From positions 13,668 to 77,667 of the forward strand of contig MQRK01204567.1 in NCBI GenBank assembly GCA_001938485.1: 64,000 nucleotides of DNA. Reading direction: 5' to 3'. Below, one piece after another: positions 1-56,140 of the stretch; position 1 is the first letter of the stretch; every line of letters begins with the position of its first letter. Made by a program: the position numbers and the translations under genes. The notes under the pieces are model-generated. The model saw nothing but the letters and a program-made list of their open reading frames with translations. It was not told the DNA's origin and made no database searches. Origin of the DNA: Girardia tigrina (lineage: Eukaryota).

Positions 1-226
1 TTCATGTGTAAAACATTTGAGAAGCTTTTTAGGTTTAACGAACTATTACAGGAAATTCTTAAAAGATTATGCAAAGTATTCAAAAGTATTGGAAGGACTA
101 TGCGGAAAGAATAAAGAAAGAAAGCTAATATGGACGGAAGAATGCAACGAAGCGTTTCAAAAATTAAAGGAAAAGATGATCAATACACCAATACTAGCAT
201 ACCCAGATTTCGGAAAAGAATTCATA
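1..226 (+). mobile_element. Ty3/Gypsy pol fragment (RT thumb/RNase H linker)
   Basis: LRSFLGLTNYYRKF...WTEECNEAFQKLKEKMINTPILAYPDFGKEFI. Ends at an inversion junction near 225. Confidence 0.9.
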
Positions 227-775
227 TCGCTATCTCTTGATCGACGTTATCATCGTCAATCATTTTGGCATAGACCAAGTTTGATAGTTCTTTCTTACCA
301 AACATTTTCTCCACTAATTTTCTATTATCTCATCTGCTTTGCGGAACGCAAGTGACGGGTCACCGCAACCTACTCTTAACTCTATGAGATCTTTCATCAA
401 ATCCAAAATAGATTTCTCTTTTAAAAATGCTGCTCGCATTCTCTGTTCGCAAGTACTCCCTAGGGCCTTCTCGTATCTCAGAATCGCATCTGGAGTCAAG
501 TAGGGTGTTACCAGTAAGATTTTTCTCTCCTCTGATAATCCCATATTCTTTGAATACCTGTTAAAACTTATCAGGAATTCTTCTAACTTGTGTTCGGATC
601 CATCGAATGTTTCTGGACCTTTGATGTTCGGAGTCACGTGGTGTGAAGTCGCCATGTTAAGAGAACTCACACATTTGACAGAACATTTATTACACTCACA
701 TTTCTTATCATCTTTATGATGATCAATATTATTGCTTTCACTTAGATCCATCAAACAATTTTCAATATCTCCCAT
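227..775 (-). pseudogene. Ty3/Gypsy gag fragment whose ORF starts inside the LTR
   Basis: PNIKGPETFDGS..KLEEFL..FNRY..LSEERKILLV.PYL resembles a retrotransposon Gag N-terminus. Continues past a frameshift near 314 (VEKMFGKKELSNLVYAKM). Confidence 0.75.
645..654 (-). other. Primer-binding site TGGCGACTTC abutting the LTR 3' end
   Basis: ...CTCTTAACA|TGGCGAC. TGG is complementary to tRNA CCA; TGGCGAC is a common (often tRNA-Arg-type) Gypsy PBS start. Confidence 0.7.
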
Positions 776-1111
776 TATAATCTTAACTATACTTGAGAAG
801 ATTATTTTATTTAAAAATATTTACTTTAAATTTTATTGGCTGAAATAAAATATTTTTATAGTCATTTTTAAACTTTAATTTAATTTTAATTATTAAAAAA
901 ATTACAAAAATAAAATCAATAAAATTATTTTAAGTTGCAATAATAAAAATTAAGAATTTGAATATTAAATCTAAATTTAAATAAATTAATTTCAGATTAT
1001 AAAAAATTAAATATTGATCTGGTTAGGAGAGGCACAATCCCAAATCAACACACAACATTTTAACATGCAAAAAACTACACAAAAACATCCACACACCAAA
1101 TATTCCTCACA
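655..1111 (-). mobile_element. 5' LTR (TG...CA, 457 bp) of the TGTGAGGAATA Gypsy family
   Basis: Starts TGTGAGGAATATT, ends CTCTTAACA, followed by PBS and gag; homologous to the solo LTRs in the window. Confidence 0.8.
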
Positions 1112-1248
1112 AGGTTAACATTATTCTGATTCACGACAGGGTCTTTGTAAAATACATTAATCGAAGTACCACTATTGTAATGATAATTTGAAAGATTTTT
1201 AAGTATAAAAAGCTTTGTAAAAATGTTTTTCATAAATTTTTAAAATTA

Positions 1249-2239: not shown

Positions 2240-2502
2240 TAATTGTAAATTAAAAATAATTTAATTTAATTTTAAAGTAAAAAGATTTAAAATAATTTTT
2301 GAATGTATTATTTATTTTTTTTAATGTAATTTAATTTTAACCAATTAGAATCTTTATAATTTAATAATTTTTATTAACAGATTTTCATTTATTGAAAATA
2401 ATTAGTTTGAACTCAGAAAAAATTGATCAAGAGAGATGTCAAATAGTGAATGCGCTTGTAATATTAATAAATGTTGTAAACCTCATATTGATGTTGTTAA
2501 TA
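2240..2502 (+). mobile_element. LTR 3' part (MSNSECAC subfamily)
   Basis: Closely similar inverted copy of 10748-11050; ends GATGTTGTTAATA. Confidence 0.8.
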
Positions 2503-9590: not shown

Positions 9591-10134
9591 TATTAAGAAC
9601 ACCAACATGGGTTTTCAAACTTTTATTTTCAATACAGTCAGAATTGTCTTTTAGACAACTCTCAGCAAAACTCTCGTCATTCGACATCGTTCTAAATTGA
9701 TAATTTTTAGTTAATGTTTGTTAATAAACAATTATTCGAACAATTTTTTCATTATTTTCTGATTTTATTTTTACAGTTCAAATTTGGTAATTTTAGTATC
9801 AATTTATTTATTTTATCAACATATTTATTTTATTTAAAAAATATTTTATTGAAAGAAGAAACATTTATTTAATTCAAAACTTAGTTAAAACTATTTATTT
9901 TATTTAAATTTTAATATGAAAATTTGAAAAGATTTAANNNNNNNNNNNNNNNNNNNNNNNNNNNNNNNNNNNNNNNNNNNNNNNNNNNNNNNNNNNNNNN
10001 NNNNNNNNNNNNNNNNNNNNNNNNAAATATCAATTTTCCATCTGGGTGGGAGAAACACATTTCCAAATACTAAACTCAACATACAAAATTCAACAAACCA
10101 ATTTCAACATACCAAATTTAAAATATTCCTCACA
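9591..10134 (-). mobile_element. Solo LTR TG...TA with TSD ATTAT (contains an N-gap)
   Basis: TGTGAGGAATA ... GGTGTTCTTAATA; ATTAT on both flanks. Confidence 0.75.
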
Positions 10135-10747: not shown

Positions 10748-11164
10748 TATTAACAACATCAATATGAGTTTTACAACATTTATTATTATCACAAGCGCAT
10801 TCACTATTTGACATTTTTCTTGATCTGGTTTTTCTATTTCTGAGTTCAAACTAATTATTTTCAATAAATGAAAATCTGTTAATAAAAATTATTAATTATA
10901 AAGAATCTATTGGGTTAAAATTAAATTTAAAATTTTTTTAAAAAAGAACATTTTAAATTAATATATCAAAATTTTAAATTACATTAAAAATAAATAATAC
11001 ATTCAAAATTATGGTAAATCTTTTAACTTTAAAATTAAATTAAATTATTTTTAATTAGTAGGAATCAAAGAAAATATCAATCATCCATCTGTGTAGGAGA
11101 GACACAATCCGAATTAACATACAACATGCACAATATCAACACAAAATTCAAAACCTTCCTCACA
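10748..11164 (-). mobile_element. Solo LTR TG...TA with perfect TSD CAAAT
   Basis: TGTGAGGAAGG ... GATGTTGTTAATA; CAAAT at 10743-10747 and 11165-11169. Confidence 0.85.
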
Positions 11165-17536: not shown

Positions 17537-18472
17537 TAATATCTAACACTAACGCATTTAAACTTATATACATATCAAAGTAGATAAACAAAGTATAAAG
17601 CTCAAAAACCGCCATTATTTTTCGACCAACCTAATATTAATGAATTATTAACTTTACAATTTAAAGTTAAATTAAAATTTTAAATTATTGCAAATCGTTA
17701 TTTGATTTTTATATTCAATGTAAGTTGTCTACATTTGTGGAATTGTGTTGAGGGCCGGATAAAATTATGTCGCGGGCCGTAGTTTGGAGACCCCTGGTCT
17801 ATTGAATAGACCAAACTACCTCAGGGAATCATTAGAAAGAGGTCTAATAAGTACGTATTACTTTCGATGATTTAGAAGTACTAAATATAAATTTTAAATT
17901 CTTTTTTTAAATCTGAACTTCTTAATTTTATACTTTTATATCATTTAATATCAAATTCCCACATCAGTAATTCTTTTCGAATTCGACAACAAAACTGATC
18001 TGCTCATCAGCAAATAATGTGTTTACTAATATTATTTAGTTTCATTAAGCGATACCAAATAAGATCAATCGAACATCAAAGGACGCCAAATAAAAATTTT
18101 CAAAAAATTCAGTTTTATAATTATTGAAAATATTTCTGGAGAAAGCTTGTTAAAAATTTATGCTGAAAAGCAAAAATTATCAAATAAATTTTTCGTCTCA
18201 AAAATAAATATATAAATAAATCAGTGTTGATTAATTAAAACAAAAGCCGATTTTTTTTCTGAAAATATAAAATTATTGTTTTTCATGGCATAAATCTTCT
18301 AACATCCTTTCTAATTCCTTTTTGGAATAAATAATTTAAAAAAAACGTTTCGAGTTTTATTAATTAGGAACTGTCAATGTCTTCATAAAACTAGGTCTTG
18401 ATCAGATCCCAAAAACGATATTTTCAATTTTTATATACTTAAAAATAATACGAAGTCCGGATGAAAATCTTC

Positions 18473-19587
18473 TTTTAATAACCAAAGTCATCCATTTAAA
18501 AATATATTTTAAGACAATATATTTAGACGGATCTACCGTCATCTTCAGGTTACTAATTAATAATCAATTCACCTGTATATAAATAAAAAAAGGATGATTA
18601 TGTAATCTGGATCATTTGGTTGAAAGAAAATCTCTTAGTTGCGAGACTGGGATTTATAGGAAGCAAACTGATACAGGTTTATATACTTCACCAGACAGTT
18701 TTTGTAAACTTAAGTATAAAAGAAACATGATTAAAGGTTTAATTTATCGCTCCTGGTCGTTGTCTTCCATTTTTGTTAAATCTGTAGAAAGTGTTAATAA
18801 ACTAAGTTCGTTGTTAAATAAGAATGGTTATTCTAAATCTTTTCTAGAAAAATTAATAAAGGAAACAGGAGATAAAATACTTTTGAAAGATTTTTCGAAA
18901 AATCAGAGTTTGGCTTCTCCTGGTGGATCTAAGAAAGAAATCGAAGAATCATTAGATATGAATAATATGCCTAAATATTGTTTAATTGTACCTTATTCTG
19001 AAGGATTTAAAAAATTTAAAAATGCATTGTTAAAAGCAATTAACAATGAATTAAATTTAAAAATTATATCACGATCTCATAAAATTCAAAATATGTTCAG
19101 TAATAAATCTATTACACCTTTAACACTTTGTTCNNNNNNNNNNNNNNNNNNNNNNNNNNNNNNNNNNNNNNNNNNNNNNNNNNNNNNNNNNNNNNNNNNN
19201 NNNNNNNNNNNACGAATTCAAGAACATGGTCGAAAAGAGAGTAAGAGTAATATTGCAGAACATAGGAAAAAATATAAATGTGATGTTAATTTTGATAATT
19301 TCAAAATTCTGTGTAAGCATTTTGACAGTTTTTGTGAGAGAGTGTCGTGTGAAGCATTGTTAAATAGATCACGTTACCCTAAAATCAATGTTCAATCGGC
19401 AGTCTCAACCAGCTTATTGAGAATTTTTGATTAGCATGATTTCATGCAACCGATTACATAATCATCATTTTTGTATTTATATACAGGTGAATTGATTATT
19501 AATTAGTAACCTGAAGATGACGGTAGATCCGTCGAAATATATTGTCTTAAAATATATTTTTAAATGGATGATTTTTGGTTATTAAAA
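18473..19587 (+). mobile_element. 5'-truncated Penelope-like element with inverted pseudo-LTR
   Basis: ORF 18616-19434 is RT thumb (IYRKQTDTGLY) plus GIY-YIG endonuclease C-terminus (RIQEH..SNIAEH, EALL..YPKIN). 18473-18607 is an inverted copy of 19452-19587. Confidence 0.9.
19508..19546 (+). ncRNA. Minimal hammerhead ribozyme of a PLE
   Basis: CUGAAGA-U-GACGG uagau CCGUC-GAAA-UAUA-UU; stem I is weak. Confidence 0.7.
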
Positions 19588-19614
19588 ATAATATTTATAT
19601 ATTTATATAATATA

Positions 19615-20458: not shown

Positions 20459-20918
20459 TGTTAGGTTCGTAGTTGTGTTCTGATGAAAACTTAGATGAAG
20501 ACATTTTTGAAAATTTTATTTAATACAACATTATAACATAATATTTAAACAAGTTTTGTTTAAGTTAATTTTTTGAGGAACAATTTTTCATTTTTTTGCA
20601 CAAAAAAAATAATATCAAAATAAATTATAAGTGAATACAGTTTAATCAAATGTAAATTTAATTATTTTTGTAATTTTATATTTATTTAATTTTCTAAAAA
20701 ACCTGCTAAACTGTGCTTAAATGTTCTTAAAATCTTTAACTTTCGTTCTCAAATCTATTTAATTTAGAAATTTTAGTATTGTAAGTTTTATGTAAACTTT
20801 TTTTTACAATAACTTCTATTTTTGGTTTTATAATTTAATATTAATTTATTCTTTTTAACTATAACATTTTATCTTTAGTTTATTCAAAAAATTAGAAGAG
20901 TTTCCAAAATTCCTCACA
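20459..20918 (-). mobile_element. Divergent LTR (TG...CA) of the same family
   Basis: TGTGAGGAATTTTGG ... GAACCTAACA; U5 ORF MSSSKFSSEHNYEPN in the family phase; no TSD match. Confidence 0.5.
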
Positions 20919-23487: not shown

Positions 23488-24141
23488 TGTAGTGAGGAAT
23501 ATTTTAAATTTTATTAATGTGTGAATGTATTGATGCTGTATGTTTCCACCCAGATGGAAATTGGTATTTTTGTATGTGCGATAATTGATCATTCGAACAT
23601 AATTTAAATAATAATAACGAATTGATAATAATTTGATTAATTTAAATTTTTGAATTAACAATTAAAACCAATTTTAAAATAACTTTTTTTATTTAAATTG
23701 ATATTTCCAAAAATAATGAAATTTACAATATTTTAATTAAACGATATTTTTATAATTTTATAAAATTTTAAAGTAAAATTTTTATAATATATTTGTGACT
23801 TGAAAATTTTAAAATCATCAAATTCAAATTTAAAAAACATTATTACAATTGATAGAATATTTTATAAATCAAATAAAATATAAATTTATCTAGTTCTATT
23901 AACGTAGTGGTGTTTGATTAATTTTAACTAAATTTTAAGGTTTTAAAAAGGAACGTATAGGTTATTAATCTTAATAAATATTTTCGAAAGAGAAAGAAAA
24001 ATGGTTTAAATAATCATTTAAAAACACAAATAAAATCAATTAGAATAACATCAAATCATAAAAGATCTTCCGAGAGTTGTGAAGACTCTAAATGTAATGT
24101 TAATTTATGTTTTCATAATAATTTTGTCGCTGCTCTTAACA
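23488..24141 (+). mobile_element. Solo LTR (TG...CA)
   Basis: GTGAGGAATA start, CCACCCAGATGG motif, end GCTCTTAACA; flanks ATAAC/ATAAT if the start is 23488. Confidence 0.65.
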
Positions 24142-24161
24142 ATAATAATAATAATTGTATT

Positions 24162-24445
24162 TATTAAGAACACCAACATGGGTTTTCAAACTGTTATTTT
24201 CAATACAGTCAGAATTGTCTTTTGGACAACTCTCAGCAAAACTCTCGTAATTCGACATCGTTCTAAATTGATAACTTTTAGTTAATGTTTGTTAATAAAC
24301 AATTATTGGAACAAATTTTTCATTATTTTCAGATTTTATTTTTAGAGTTCAAATTTTGTAATTTTAGTATTAATTTTATTTACATATTAATTTTATTTAA
24401 AAATTATTTTATGGAAAGAACTATTTTATTATAAATAAATAATTA
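24162..24445 (-). mobile_element. LTR 3' part (TA end)
   Basis: Near-identical to 9591-9900. Confidence 0.85.
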
Positions 24446-29229: not shown

Positions 29230-30362
29230 TTCCTTTGAAAGGGACGTTGCGAAAATGATTTTGAATTGATATGGAACGGTGTTCATGAATTTCTACCGGC
29301 TTGGAGAAGTGCTAAAGTGGCGAACTTATGGAAAAAGTACAAGATCCGACCCGAACAACTATAGGGGTATCTTTCTCTTAGAAGTTACTGGTAAGGTTTT
29401 TGCGCGAATCATCGTAAATAGAATCATATCAGTGATGGAAGAAAGATTAAATCCCTGGCAATTTGGTTTTAGGTCGAAAATAGGCATGTTGCAGGCCATT
29501 AGTATACTCAGGCGTATACAGCAAGAAGGTCAATACAAGAACCAGAAGGTATATGTGATCTTCATTGATTTGGAAAAGGCATTTGACAGTGTCCCGCGTG
29601 AGGTTCTGTGGGCTCGTCTGAAAAGACTAGGATTAACCAAAAAGATTCTCTGTCTTATCAAAGAATTTCATGAGAATTTTATTGCGACTGTAGGACACAG
29701 TAATTTTCCCATGAAAAGAGGTGATAGGCATGGGTGTATGATGTGACCTAGTTTATTCAATTTGGTCTTCGATGAAGTGATGAAAACGCCTGTACTGAAA
29801 GGATTCGGTGGAGATGTCACCCTGATCGATGAGCAAGGCAATGAATTTCAACTGAACAGACTTGCATATGCAGATGACATCTGTATCATCGACTCTGATA
29901 TTGATCGAGCCTGTAAAAACCTGGGTATACTAAGGAGTATATTTCTGGAGTTTGGACTGACAATAAGTGCTACAAAGACAAAAGTCATGTGCCTTACTGA
30001 CGAATCAGGCTTCGGAATATTGCAAGTTAAATGTGGTAAGAATGTCATAGAATGGGTGAAAGAATTCTGTTTTCTCGGAAGTATATTGACTACTAGATGT
30101 AGTTGTAACCAGGATATTAGTCAACGAATACGAAATGGAATGCGAAAGCTTAAAGAATTGCAACCTGCAATTTAGAGTAACAGCGTCCCAATAGTATTGA
30201 AGAGAAAACTGATTGAGACTAGAATTTTCCCTGTGGTCTATTATGGTAGTGAGTGCTGGGCAACTCCTGAGGATGACGTTGTACAGTTACAAGCCTTCCA
30301 TAATTGCTGCACAAGGACAGCTCTCAAGAAGACCAAACTCGACAGGATCCCAAATAAGGATG
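29230..30362 (+). mobile_element. Non-LTR retrotransposon RT fragment (RTE-like LINE), pseudogenised
   Basis: NNYRGIFLL, QFGFR, FIDLEKAFDSV, LAYADD, FCFLGS motifs with in-frame stops. Confidence 0.92.
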
Positions 30363-37031: not shown

Positions 37032-37418
37032 TATTAAGAAAACCAATAAGACTTAATATTTTTTATTAATATTACAAATTTGTTTTTCCTCAGGACAATC
37101 TTTGTCAAAGCTTTCGTAAGATTGCATCCGTCTAATTAATTATTGACTTTATTATTATCTGACCAAATGGAGATTAAATAAAGTTTTAAAATTCTTATTC
37201 CAAAAACTAATTATTTAAAAAAATATTAATTCAATTGTAAATAAAATTAATAAACTTATTTAAAATTTTACAATTATTTTAAATATTTTATTAAAAATTA
37301 CATATTTTTATAGAATCAGAATAAATATTAATCAGCCATCTGGGTAGGAGAGACACAATTGCAAATCAACACACAACATTCAAACACAAAACAATAAACT
37401 TTCAAATTATTCCTCACA
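37032..37418 (-). mobile_element. Solo LTR TG...TA with TSD A(T/C)CAT
   Basis: TGTGAGGAATA, U3 motif, end GGTTTTCTTAATA. Confidence 0.8.
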
Positions 37419-53754: not shown

Positions 53755-55021
53755 CAGTCAATTTTTTATTTTACGAAATTTTATTTAAAGAAAATGTCAA
53801 TATTACGAAAAATATATTTTAAAGGTCCACGAAATTGTGTTTTAATATACAGTTTAACGAAATTTTTTTAACGAAAGACTAAAACCCATGACTAGCCGAG
53901 TGAATAATCAAAAGCAAACAAGAAGACATGTAAGTATTGATGAAAAAATTAAAATTCTAGATTACAAGTTACTGAATCCCGATGTTACACAACTTGGATT
54001 GACAAAAAAATTTAATATTTCGCTTGGAACAATCAATTCAATATTAAAAAAGAGAAAGATCTACGGAATGCTTTTTTGTGCAAATTTATCTGGTCAAAAA
54101 GAAATACCATTACTAATTGGAAAGGCACAGAGACCACACGGGTTTAAACACTTGAATTTGAATGACCTTGGGTTGGATTATAAAATCAGCAAAAAGGCTT
54201 GGATGACAAGCACTATTTTCTTTAACTGGATGAATCAACTTAATGACAGAATGCAAAAAGAAAATAGGAAAATTTTATTAATACTGGACAATGCACCAGT
54301 TCATAATATCAACAGTACTTTCTCTAATGTTCAACTATACTTTTTGCCACCAACAACCACCTCACAGATTCAGCCGTTAGATCAAGGTATAATTCGCTCT
54401 TTCAAGGCCAACTATCGTAAGTTTTTCATGCGAAAATTAACATTGAATGATGAAAAAGATGGTACATGCTATGCAAATTTGCTTAAAAACACAAAACTTA
54501 AAGATATTTTATCGTTGATTATTGAAGCATGGAATTGTGTGAGTGCCGAAACAATCACAAACTGTTTTAATAAAGCATTTAACAATTGGTCAAAAAATAC
54601 AGTTGACATAATAGATGATGATATTGAAGATACTCAAGAAAATAAACTTGATGTTGACTTTCCAGCTTGCAATGAATACATCGAACATGATGATTTAAAC
54701 AGTGAAGAAATTTGCATAGATGAAATACAACCAACCGAAGAAAAAGTCTCAGAGGAAGAGGAAGAGAAAGAAAAACTAGTTAGTTATAATGAGGTGATCT
54801 CAGATATTAATTTAGTGGAAGCTTATATGCTGCAAAACAGTTGTACTGATTTTATTAATCTTGGAAAAGTTAAAGAAGATATTATGAAAACAAAAAAAAG
54901 AAAAGGTATGAAAATCACGGATTATTTTAATAAAAAAATTCAATAAATTTCTGAATTTTCGTTATTTTTTTTACGAAAGACCAAAATCCGTGTAAATTGA
55001 TTTTCGTTAAACCGAACTTTG
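53755..55021 (+). mobile_element. pogo/Tigger element with in-frame internal deletion
   Basis: TA|CAGT start, repeated T(T/A)ACGAAA subterminal motifs, degenerate right TIR. Confidence 0.75.
53888..54946 (+). CDS. 352-aa deleted Tigger/CENP-B-like transposase (first HTH fused to a partial DDE domain)
   Basis: KKAWMTSTIF, LDNAPVH with 30 residues to QPLD, acidic tail. The second HTH and the NxDETG motif are absent. Confidence 0.85.
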   Translation: MTSRVNNQKQTRRHVSIDEKIKILDYKLLNPDVTQLGLTKKFNISLGTINSILKKRKIYGMLFCANLSGQKEIPLLIGKAQRPHGFKHLNLNDLGLDYKISKKAWMTSTIFFNWMNQLNDRMQKENRKILLILDNAPVHNINSTFSNVQLYFLPPTTTSQIQPLDQGIIRSFKANYRKFFMRKLTLNDEKDGTCYANLLKNTKLKDILSLIIEAWNCVSAETITNCFNKAFNNWSKNTVDIIDDDIEDTQENKLDVDFPACNEYIEHDDLNSEEICIDEIQPTEEKVSEEEEEKEKLVSYNEVISDINLVEAYMLQNSCTDFINLGKVKEDIMKTKKRKGMKITDYFNKKIQ

Positions 55022-55904: not shown

Positions 55905-56140
55905 TATTAAGAACACCAACATGGGTTTTCGAACTTTTATTTTCAATACAGTCAGAATTGTCTTTTGGACAACTCTCAGCAAAGCTTTCGTAATTCGACA
56001 TCGTTCTAAATTGATAAATTTTAGTTAGTGTTTTTTAATAAACAATTATTCAAAATGTGTTTCTCCCACCCAGATGGAAAATTGATATTTTGGATGTTCA
56101 CGATGAATAATTATTTTAAAATATTATTTAAAGTCTTTTT
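55905..56140. mobile_element. Rearranged LTR: U5 end on minus joined to U3 segment on plus
   Basis: 55905-56052 matches 9591-9738; 56055-56090 is the reverse complement of 10025-10060. Confidence 0.75.

Follow-up and report, generated by a model that had tools for sequence, protein, structure and literature searches.

Where does the gag gene of a Gypsy retrotransposon begin? The question is raised by a 64,000-nt stretch of the Girardia tigrina genome (hereafter the window), in which an open reading frame starts inside a long terminal repeat (LTR), crosses the LTR end and the primer-binding site (PBS), and leads into gag. The initial annotation of this DNA read the frame as a phase-conserved, Cys-containing Gag extension encoded by U5.

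The window element and its gag start

The 5' end of a Ty3/Gypsy element lies on the minus strand of the window. The element has two LTRs, with an LTR length of 457 bp, and a 5-bp target duplication. The 3' LTR was located on the same contig upstream of the window (L352:1802-2267), behind a polypurine tract, and a tRNA-complementary PBS adjoins the 5' LTR. The assignment of the DNA upstream of gag to an LTR is upheld by the 3' partner, the polypurine tract, and the presence of AACCT on both sides. The features of the element are as follows.

655-1111, minus strand: 5' LTR, 457 bp, TG...CA (TGTGAGG...CTTAACA); 92.5% identical to the 3' partner LTR, with L035 as a two-LTR relative
1112-1116, minus strand: target-site duplication AACCT, repeated beyond the 3' LTR (flanks of both LTRs)
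835-839, minus strand: CCAAT-like word found across family copies, with a putative promoter role
755-775, minus strand: upstream open reading frame of the family, 6 codons, MGDIEN-stop, whose stop reads TGT in the window LTR alone (3' LTR, family copies, RNA runs)
656-751, minus strand: LTR-encoded Gag leader, 32 codons, MDLSES...VSSLN (37 of 55 copies open; relative P0001; pLDDT 37-43)
686-691, minus strand: likely poly(A) signal, AATAAA (Asn-Lys in the leader frame); TGT lies 6 nt before it, and a GT-rich tract follows
653-655, minus strand: junction ATG, formed by the last LTR base and the TG of the PBS
626-654, minus strand: coding PBS for tRNA-Arg(ACG), 7 contiguous pairs followed by bulged pairing into the T-loop; codons MATSHHVTPN
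225-655, minus strand: gag capsid region, frameshifted near 320 and truncated near 225

The window copy is defective, as its gag frame is disrupted near 320 and cut near 225. The gene content was read from relatives. Gag is 380 aa long in P0001 and carries two CCHC knuckles, and Pol is a separate frame of about 1050 aa. The domain order is gag, protease, RT, RNase H, integrase (Pfam sets of P0004), and integrase does not precede RT as it does in Ty1/copia. Among solved structures, the RT is closest to that of Ty3 (E 7e-64). A Pfam search gave no match on the leader or the capsid. The predicted model has a two-lobe capsid fold from about residue 41, and the best matches in a fold search were dArc1, copia, Ty3, dArc2, and PNMA2, with weak E-values of 0.04-0.2 and probabilities of 0.8-0.99. 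Named Gypsy clades include Mag, CsRN1, and 412/mdg1. Database matches that bear a clade name are at most 40% identical to the window element, and the closer ones all lack a clade name. The genome is AT-rich and 1.43 Gb in size, and it holds at least 474 junctions of the window element's subfamily with an exact 16-base motif.

Rearranged copies were also seen. Positions 1-228 of the window (plus strand) hold an RT/RNase H piece of a close relative, head to head with the gag of the window copy; the neighboring DNA is masked, and an insertion is not distinguishable from an inversion there. L033 and L035 are two-LTR copies with internal deletions (about 2.0 and 2.7 kb between the LTRs), and gag is fused straight to RNase H sequence in L035.

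At which codon does the frame start? All 10 peptides quoted in the initial annotation are present at their places, and the junction reads CTT AAC A|TG GCG as described. The proposed start at ATG 775 (MGDIENC) does not stand. It is in frame with gag only via a mutation private to the window LTR, in which codon 757-755 is TGT. This codon is TGA in the element's own 3' LTR, among 45 family copies it is a stop 40 times and TGT once, and place 755 reads TGA in all four RNA runs aligned. The start of the window family (family A) is ATG 751, 32 codons before the LTR end. Among 55 copies retrieved with a query that excluded the leader, and with 10 further copies set aside as truncated, the frame from ATG 751 is open in 37, has indels in 10, lacks the ATG in 5, and contains a stop in 3. 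A length of 380 aa, which includes the leader, is found in P0001 and in 10 of the 15 cluster members listed with it. The leader ATG of family A, with T at -3, is in a poor context and lies downstream of the short upstream open reading frame; the junction ATG is preceded by A at -3 and followed by G at +4.

The common ending of the leaders in Asn plus A, noted in the initial annotation, was rejected as independent evidence, and so was the junction ATG. An LTR end TAAYA followed by a PBS starting with TGG automatically yields A|TG, an Asn codon, and one frame closed by TAA. In line with this, families without any LTR ATG display the junction ATG and the Asn as well, and their gag begins at the junction. 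The TAAYA motif itself is no evidence because the sampling pattern partly contained it. A single synonymous pair at 56001 (GAG AGT to GAA AGC) was likewise rejected as evidence.

In-frame LTR starts across the clade

An LTR-encoded extension in frame with gag, with no spacer, was found in many subfamilies, as the initial annotation had proposed. For this comparison, 163 LTR/gag junctions, from loci found without the leader in the query, were clustered. An open in-frame LTR ATG lies 9-96 nt upstream of the junction in 14 of the 18 clusters with at least two copies, and the other 4 have none; an out-of-frame open ATG alone occurs in none of the 18. The 11 single-copy clusters shown divide into 7 with an in-frame and 4 with an out-of-frame ATG, and 10 more were left unlisted and judged to be damaged members of larger families. 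The chance expectation from U3 word counts is 0.15 for ATG, or 0.38 when GTG and TTG are included, with the limit that the families are related, the counts are not independent, and p-values are overstated. The sets for subfamilies B and C were partly gathered with the leader in the query.

More distant relatives display the same arrangement. A profile search returned 162 proteins, and among the best 102 new ones 69 carry an MA(T/S) motif. A leader of 3-38 residues precedes this motif in 51 of the 69, nearly all ending in Asn, and 18 of 72 proteins lack one; these database leaders are gene-caller models that take the first start. In this clade, gag coding is shown to begin at the LTR/PBS junction; an open in-frame ATG lies a further 3-38 codons upstream in most families and is missing in a few. 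In a Gag tree of 16 rows, the leaderless families C6, C11, and C17 group together (94/95). The leader state changes along the tree, whose deep nodes are weak and which gives no resolution on the monophyly of the long-leader families.

In five long-leader families and in none of the four leaderless ones, an out-of-frame ATG that is open across the junction lies 11-17 nt before it. Family A has four short out-of-frame ATG frames between the leader ATG and the junction. Because of such out-of-frame ATGs between the two starts, much leaky scanning is argued against, and a large share of a short Gag isoform appears unlikely from the sequence; the two Gag isoforms suggested as a possibility in the initial annotation are unsupported.

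Further LTR copies with leader frames occur in the window itself.

10748-11164, minus strand: solo LTR, TG...TA, 22-codon leader, target duplication ATTTG
9591-10134, minus strand: solo LTR, TG...TA, 32-codon leader, flanks ATAAT/ATAAT, contains a run of N
37032-37418, minus strand: solo LTR, leader 1 nt short, flanks ATGGT/ATGAT
20459-20918, minus strand: probable solo LTR, 15-codon Cys-free leader, no target duplication seen
2436-2502, plus strand: 3' part of an LTR, 22-codon leader
24162-24258, minus strand: 3' part of an LTR, 32-codon leader
55905-56001, minus strand: 3' part of an LTR, 32-codon leader
24051-24141, plus strand: decayed LTR end, open frame without ATG
48876-48933, plus strand: short LTR end, open frame without ATG

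The suggestion that divergent copies carry a frame in the same phase was borne out insofar as the phase agreement exceeds chance; the copies at 24051 and 48876, which had been counted in its favor, have no ATG. The LTR termini are TG...TA rather than CA, with 5-bp target duplications, at 10748-11164, 9591-10134, and 37032-37418 and in most long-leader subfamilies. At 24051-24258, the LTR ends of two different subfamilies face each other on opposite strands, 20 nt apart.

Other elements were observed in the window. At 18461-19598, 147-nt inverted repeats flank a 235-codon frame that has no fitting Pfam match and looks similar to a Penelope-type RT end with a GIY-YIG part. Elsewhere, at L288:496-921, a Gag start continues in frame into sequence resembling the frame at window 18727, apparently through the insertion of one element into another. 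Positions 53888-54946 (plus strand) hold an open 352-aa frame of a DDE_1 (pogo/Tigger-like) transposase (E 6e-40), and positions 29285-29746 (plus strand) a non-LTR-type RT fragment (RVT_1, E 7e-15).

Nature of the LTR-encoded leader

What do the leaders have in common? The sole fixed word of the long leaders is AAT AAA, at 37, 40, 43, or 28 nt from the LTR end; the long leaders supply only these four spacings. In the window element, it lies within the leader, 37 nt before the LTR end. AATAAA is in the gag phase in 10 of 10 families when it falls within the leader and in 4 of 13 when it falls outside. A TGT precedes it by 5-7 nt in 8 of the 10 families with AATAAA in the leader and in 6 of the 13 in which it is outside and untranslated, compared to 11% of the AATAAA words of the window. 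The Cys whose position is shared by 8 of 10 long leaders had been regarded as a feature of the protein; it rests on this TGT motif, which is also present where it is untranslated. In the leaders of distant relatives, Cys is nearly absent (1.8%). We infer that the recurring "C..NK" would be an RNA signal of the poly(A) type, TGT-N6-AATAAA, read in frame. AAUAAA and a GU-rich tract are known elements of poly(A) signals. A search for family-A copies that end in a poly(A) run downstream of AATAAA found none.

The position of AATAAA inside the leader makes the U5 label of the initial annotation doubtful. If AATAAA acts as a poly(A) signal, U5 would probably comprise only some 10-25 nt, and the leader would be mostly R. 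The RNA runs found for the family are contigs only, and no start, end, or poly(A) loose end was seen in these contigs across the leader. Contig ends at 671/672 in three runs were considered as a hint of cleavage and rejected, since common variants 30 nt away (701, 704) explain them. Runs X6 and X7, leaf-litter metatranscriptome contigs, cover gag across the PBS, and DNA carry-over is possible in them.

Is the amino-acid sequence of the leader conserved? Variants present in three or more copies (shared variants) were counted in six subfamilies. The leader has 14 synonymous and 48 non-synonymous variants and no stops (pN/pS 0.68), the upstream non-coding control 25, 74, and 16, respectively (pN/pS 0.79), and gag 65, 79, and 6 (pN/pS 0.33). 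The leader thus differs from gag (14/48 vs 65/85, Fisher p 0.005), and its ratio is near that of the non-coding control. Between subfamilies, the ratio is 0.5-1.6 for the leader and 0.2-0.6 for gag. These values do not support a conserved Cys-containing extension. The initial annotation had named a dN/dS near 1 as a result that would refute its proposal, and this is what the amino-acid sequence of the leader displays.

The absence of shared stops from the leaders (0 of 62, 2.1 expected, p 0.12) is not significant against the opportunity for stops, and a contrast with upstream DNA (p 0.0015) was dropped as inflated by stops already standing there. In 44 copies of family A, there are no shared frameshifts in the leader and four in the 100 nt upstream. 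When 18 leaders were compared to 300 stop-free dinucleotide shuffles, they had more D+E (53 vs 32) and S+T (71 vs 45) and fewer hydrophobic (86 vs 149) and K+R residues (34 vs 56), each count lying outside all 300 shuffles. Cys is mildly enriched (28 vs 18), a value reached by 2 of the 300. The distant leaders have 17.8% D+E and 7.8% K+R. In the predicted model, residues 1-39 are unstructured. An acidic, polar, predicted-disordered composition appears to be the profile of a translated disordered tail, and it appears that the frame and make-up of the leader, not its sequence, are under selection. Translation of the leader would likely yield a flexible, rapidly evolving tail and not a conserved Cys domain.

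The reading that we consider fairly probable, based on sequence comparison and structure prediction, is that the gag frame opens in the LTR and runs through the LTR end and PBS, and that the leader is translated as a disordered acidic-polar tail of Gag, selected for frame and make-up. Could the leader instead be a functional part of Gag? It might form an acidic tail with Cys on the particle surface; such a tail could bind metal, carry a lipid, or diversify to counter host control, and the junction ATG might in addition give a short isoform. This possibility is doubtful. Upstream starts far commoner than chance, the acidic bias, and the recurrent, mildly enriched Cys agree with it, the strong context of the junction ATG agrees with a second isoform, and the pN/pS of the leader in families A (1.27) and C (1.13) would fit diversification. 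However, these two values are not significantly above 1, and a functional tail is opposed by the lack of sequence conservation, by a length that varies from 3 to 38 residues, and by the absence of the leader from 4 of 18 families and 18 of 72 database proteins. The scarcity of Cys in distant leaders, the untranslated TGT motifs (against their 11% background), and the out-of-frame ATGs between the starts also count against it. It is decidedly improbable that the leader is untranslated, with Gag made from the junction ATG in all families, RNA starting near the LTR end, and an open frame left as a side effect of conserved LTR signals and descent: the junction start of the leaderless families, the non-coding-like pN/pS, and the non-significant avoidance of stops are consistent with it, but the many differing leader lengths are all in phase, the phase of AATAAA depends on its position inside the leader, the protein-like composition exceeds stop-free shuffles, and the out-of-frame ATGs just before the junction would shadow a junction start.

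How would a translated tail be maintained? In the favored reading, ribosomes would scan the RNA and likely start at the LTR ATG, 96 bases inside the 5' LTR. Translation would then pass the likely poly(A) signal, cross the LTR end, and continue over the tRNA-Arg primer site, giving Gag with a tail. The first AUG of the RNA would have to remain in frame and stop-free, otherwise Gag would be lost, and the tail would be tolerated provided it is polar. An upstream start may also be favored, though this argument is weaker, because pairing with the CCA end of the primer would cover the UG of the junction AUG. A more far-reaching proposal, which is improbable as judged at present, is that the clade hides its Gag start under the primer tRNA, with primer binding acting as the switch from translation of the RNA to its reverse transcription. 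In most lineages, an upstream LTR start would have provided an escape from this switch or a way to tune it, thereby making the att site, the poly(A) signal, and the bulged PBS into a rapidly diversifying capsid surface tail with two Gag isoforms.

The primer, the coding PBS, and known elements

Which tRNA primes the element? An initial search for tRNA genes found none in 28 loci; tRNA-Arg(ACG) genes were found in tandem. An LTR-type end is joined to at least 18 bases of tRNA-Arg(ACG) complement at 107 places. These include some families with a perfect PBS and many long-leader LTRs followed by a tRNA copy and then unrelated DNA, and some of the joins reach deep into the tRNA and have no fixed base opposite position 58. 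On the strength of these joins and of the misreads at position 58, the primer is identified as mature tRNA-Arg(ACG). We read the joins as probable insertions of plus-strand strong-stop DNA copied from the mature tRNA. LTR ends joined to long or whole mature tRNA-Arg copies with CCA were observed at L082:350-425 (minus strand), L229, L165, L216, and other loci. The LTR-joined copies have mixed bases opposite position 58, and two whole copies have GCG for the ACG anticodon, as expected of modified bases. Since GCG is also the anticodon of one of the four tRNA genes in the tandem array L230, the change is no proof of inosine.

The native PBSs of long-leader families have 7-11 straight pairs followed by bulges into the T-loop. 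This pairing goes beyond that of tail shuffles in three of five long-leader copies (4/200 for the window copy) and does not in L124 and L163. A PBS of the tRNA type is rare. Of the 474 junctions, 100 were listed, 2 of which belong to another family; among the 98 from family A, 9 have it as counted by eye, and 2 of these 9 are joined to gag, both 2 nt short and out of frame. Five cases from other subfamilies, with shifts of -1 or +4, have likewise lost the frame. The rarity of these copies and their loss of frame indicate that the tRNA sequence is seldom inherited and is harmful when inherited. It appears that the PBS drifted into bulged tRNA pairing because it is coding, and copies that take over the tRNA sequence would lose the frame.

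These observations have several implications. The layout in which gag covers the LTR end and PBS is extended from Ty1 to a broad Gypsy clade, and its evolution is visible: frame and composition are kept, and sequence and length turn over. The genome serves as a natural record of reverse transcription, in which copies of the mature primer tRNA, misread at modified bases, are attached to LTR ends, rare frameshifted copies reveal the bulged pairing register, and primer inheritance can be measured from sequence alone. Solo LTRs with an ATG and a frame open to their end could donate starts to neighboring DNA. Gag N-termini of this type will be overlooked wherever annotation begins gag downstream of the PBS. 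A literature search confined to openly accessible papers returned no report of a Gypsy gag starting in the LTR, and nothing on gag starts was found in the accessible part of PMC4202319.

The closest known parallel is Ty1 of Saccharomyces cerevisiae. According to the accessible parts of the sources, Ty1 RNA has a 53-nt 5' UTR, a PBS at nt 95-104, and a Gag start before the PBS (PMC5454406); the PBS lies within the GAG frame, with extended primer contacts with the T arm (PMC4974528); and the primer sequence is not inherited (Lauermann and Boeke 1994, cited in PMC5371799). In both elements, the open frame of gag extends from within the LTR across the PBS, and, within the same limits, both have extended primer pairing and do not inherit the primer sequence. 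The layout thus works like that of Ty1 in a Gypsy element and is a real, clade-wide variant of a known layout. Unlike Ty1, the window element has the Gypsy domain order and a Ty3-like RT. The Gypsy clade further differs in its primer, which is tRNA-Arg(ACG) and not initiator Met, in the second, automatic ATG at the LTR/PBS junction, in a leader of 0 to 38 codons with a likely poly(A) signal read in frame, and in a pairing that forms one bulged helix instead of separate boxes.

Ty3 of S. cerevisiae gives the best RT match. In the accessible text, its PBS is not perpetuated from the tRNA (PMC5371799), as in the window clade, and its PBS segments lie at the genome ends, in contrast to Ty1's PBS in GAG (PMC4974528). 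The window clade differs from Ty3, as described there, in a gag coding region that covers the PBS and in two CCHC knuckles. The capsid fold resembles capsids of the Ty3, dArc, and PNMA type, matching dArc1, Ty3, dArc2, and PNMA2 at weak E-values. Burro elements of planarians are described, in the part of PMC6431247 available, as Gypsy-like elements of more than 30 kb with CCHC knuckles and one huge polyprotein in AT-rich animal genomes. On that description, the window family shares the Gypsy-like character, the CCHC knuckles, and an AT-rich animal host, but it has LTRs of about 450 bp and encodes Gag (380 aa) separately from Pol (about 1050 aa), and it has neither a length above 30 kb nor a single giant open reading frame.
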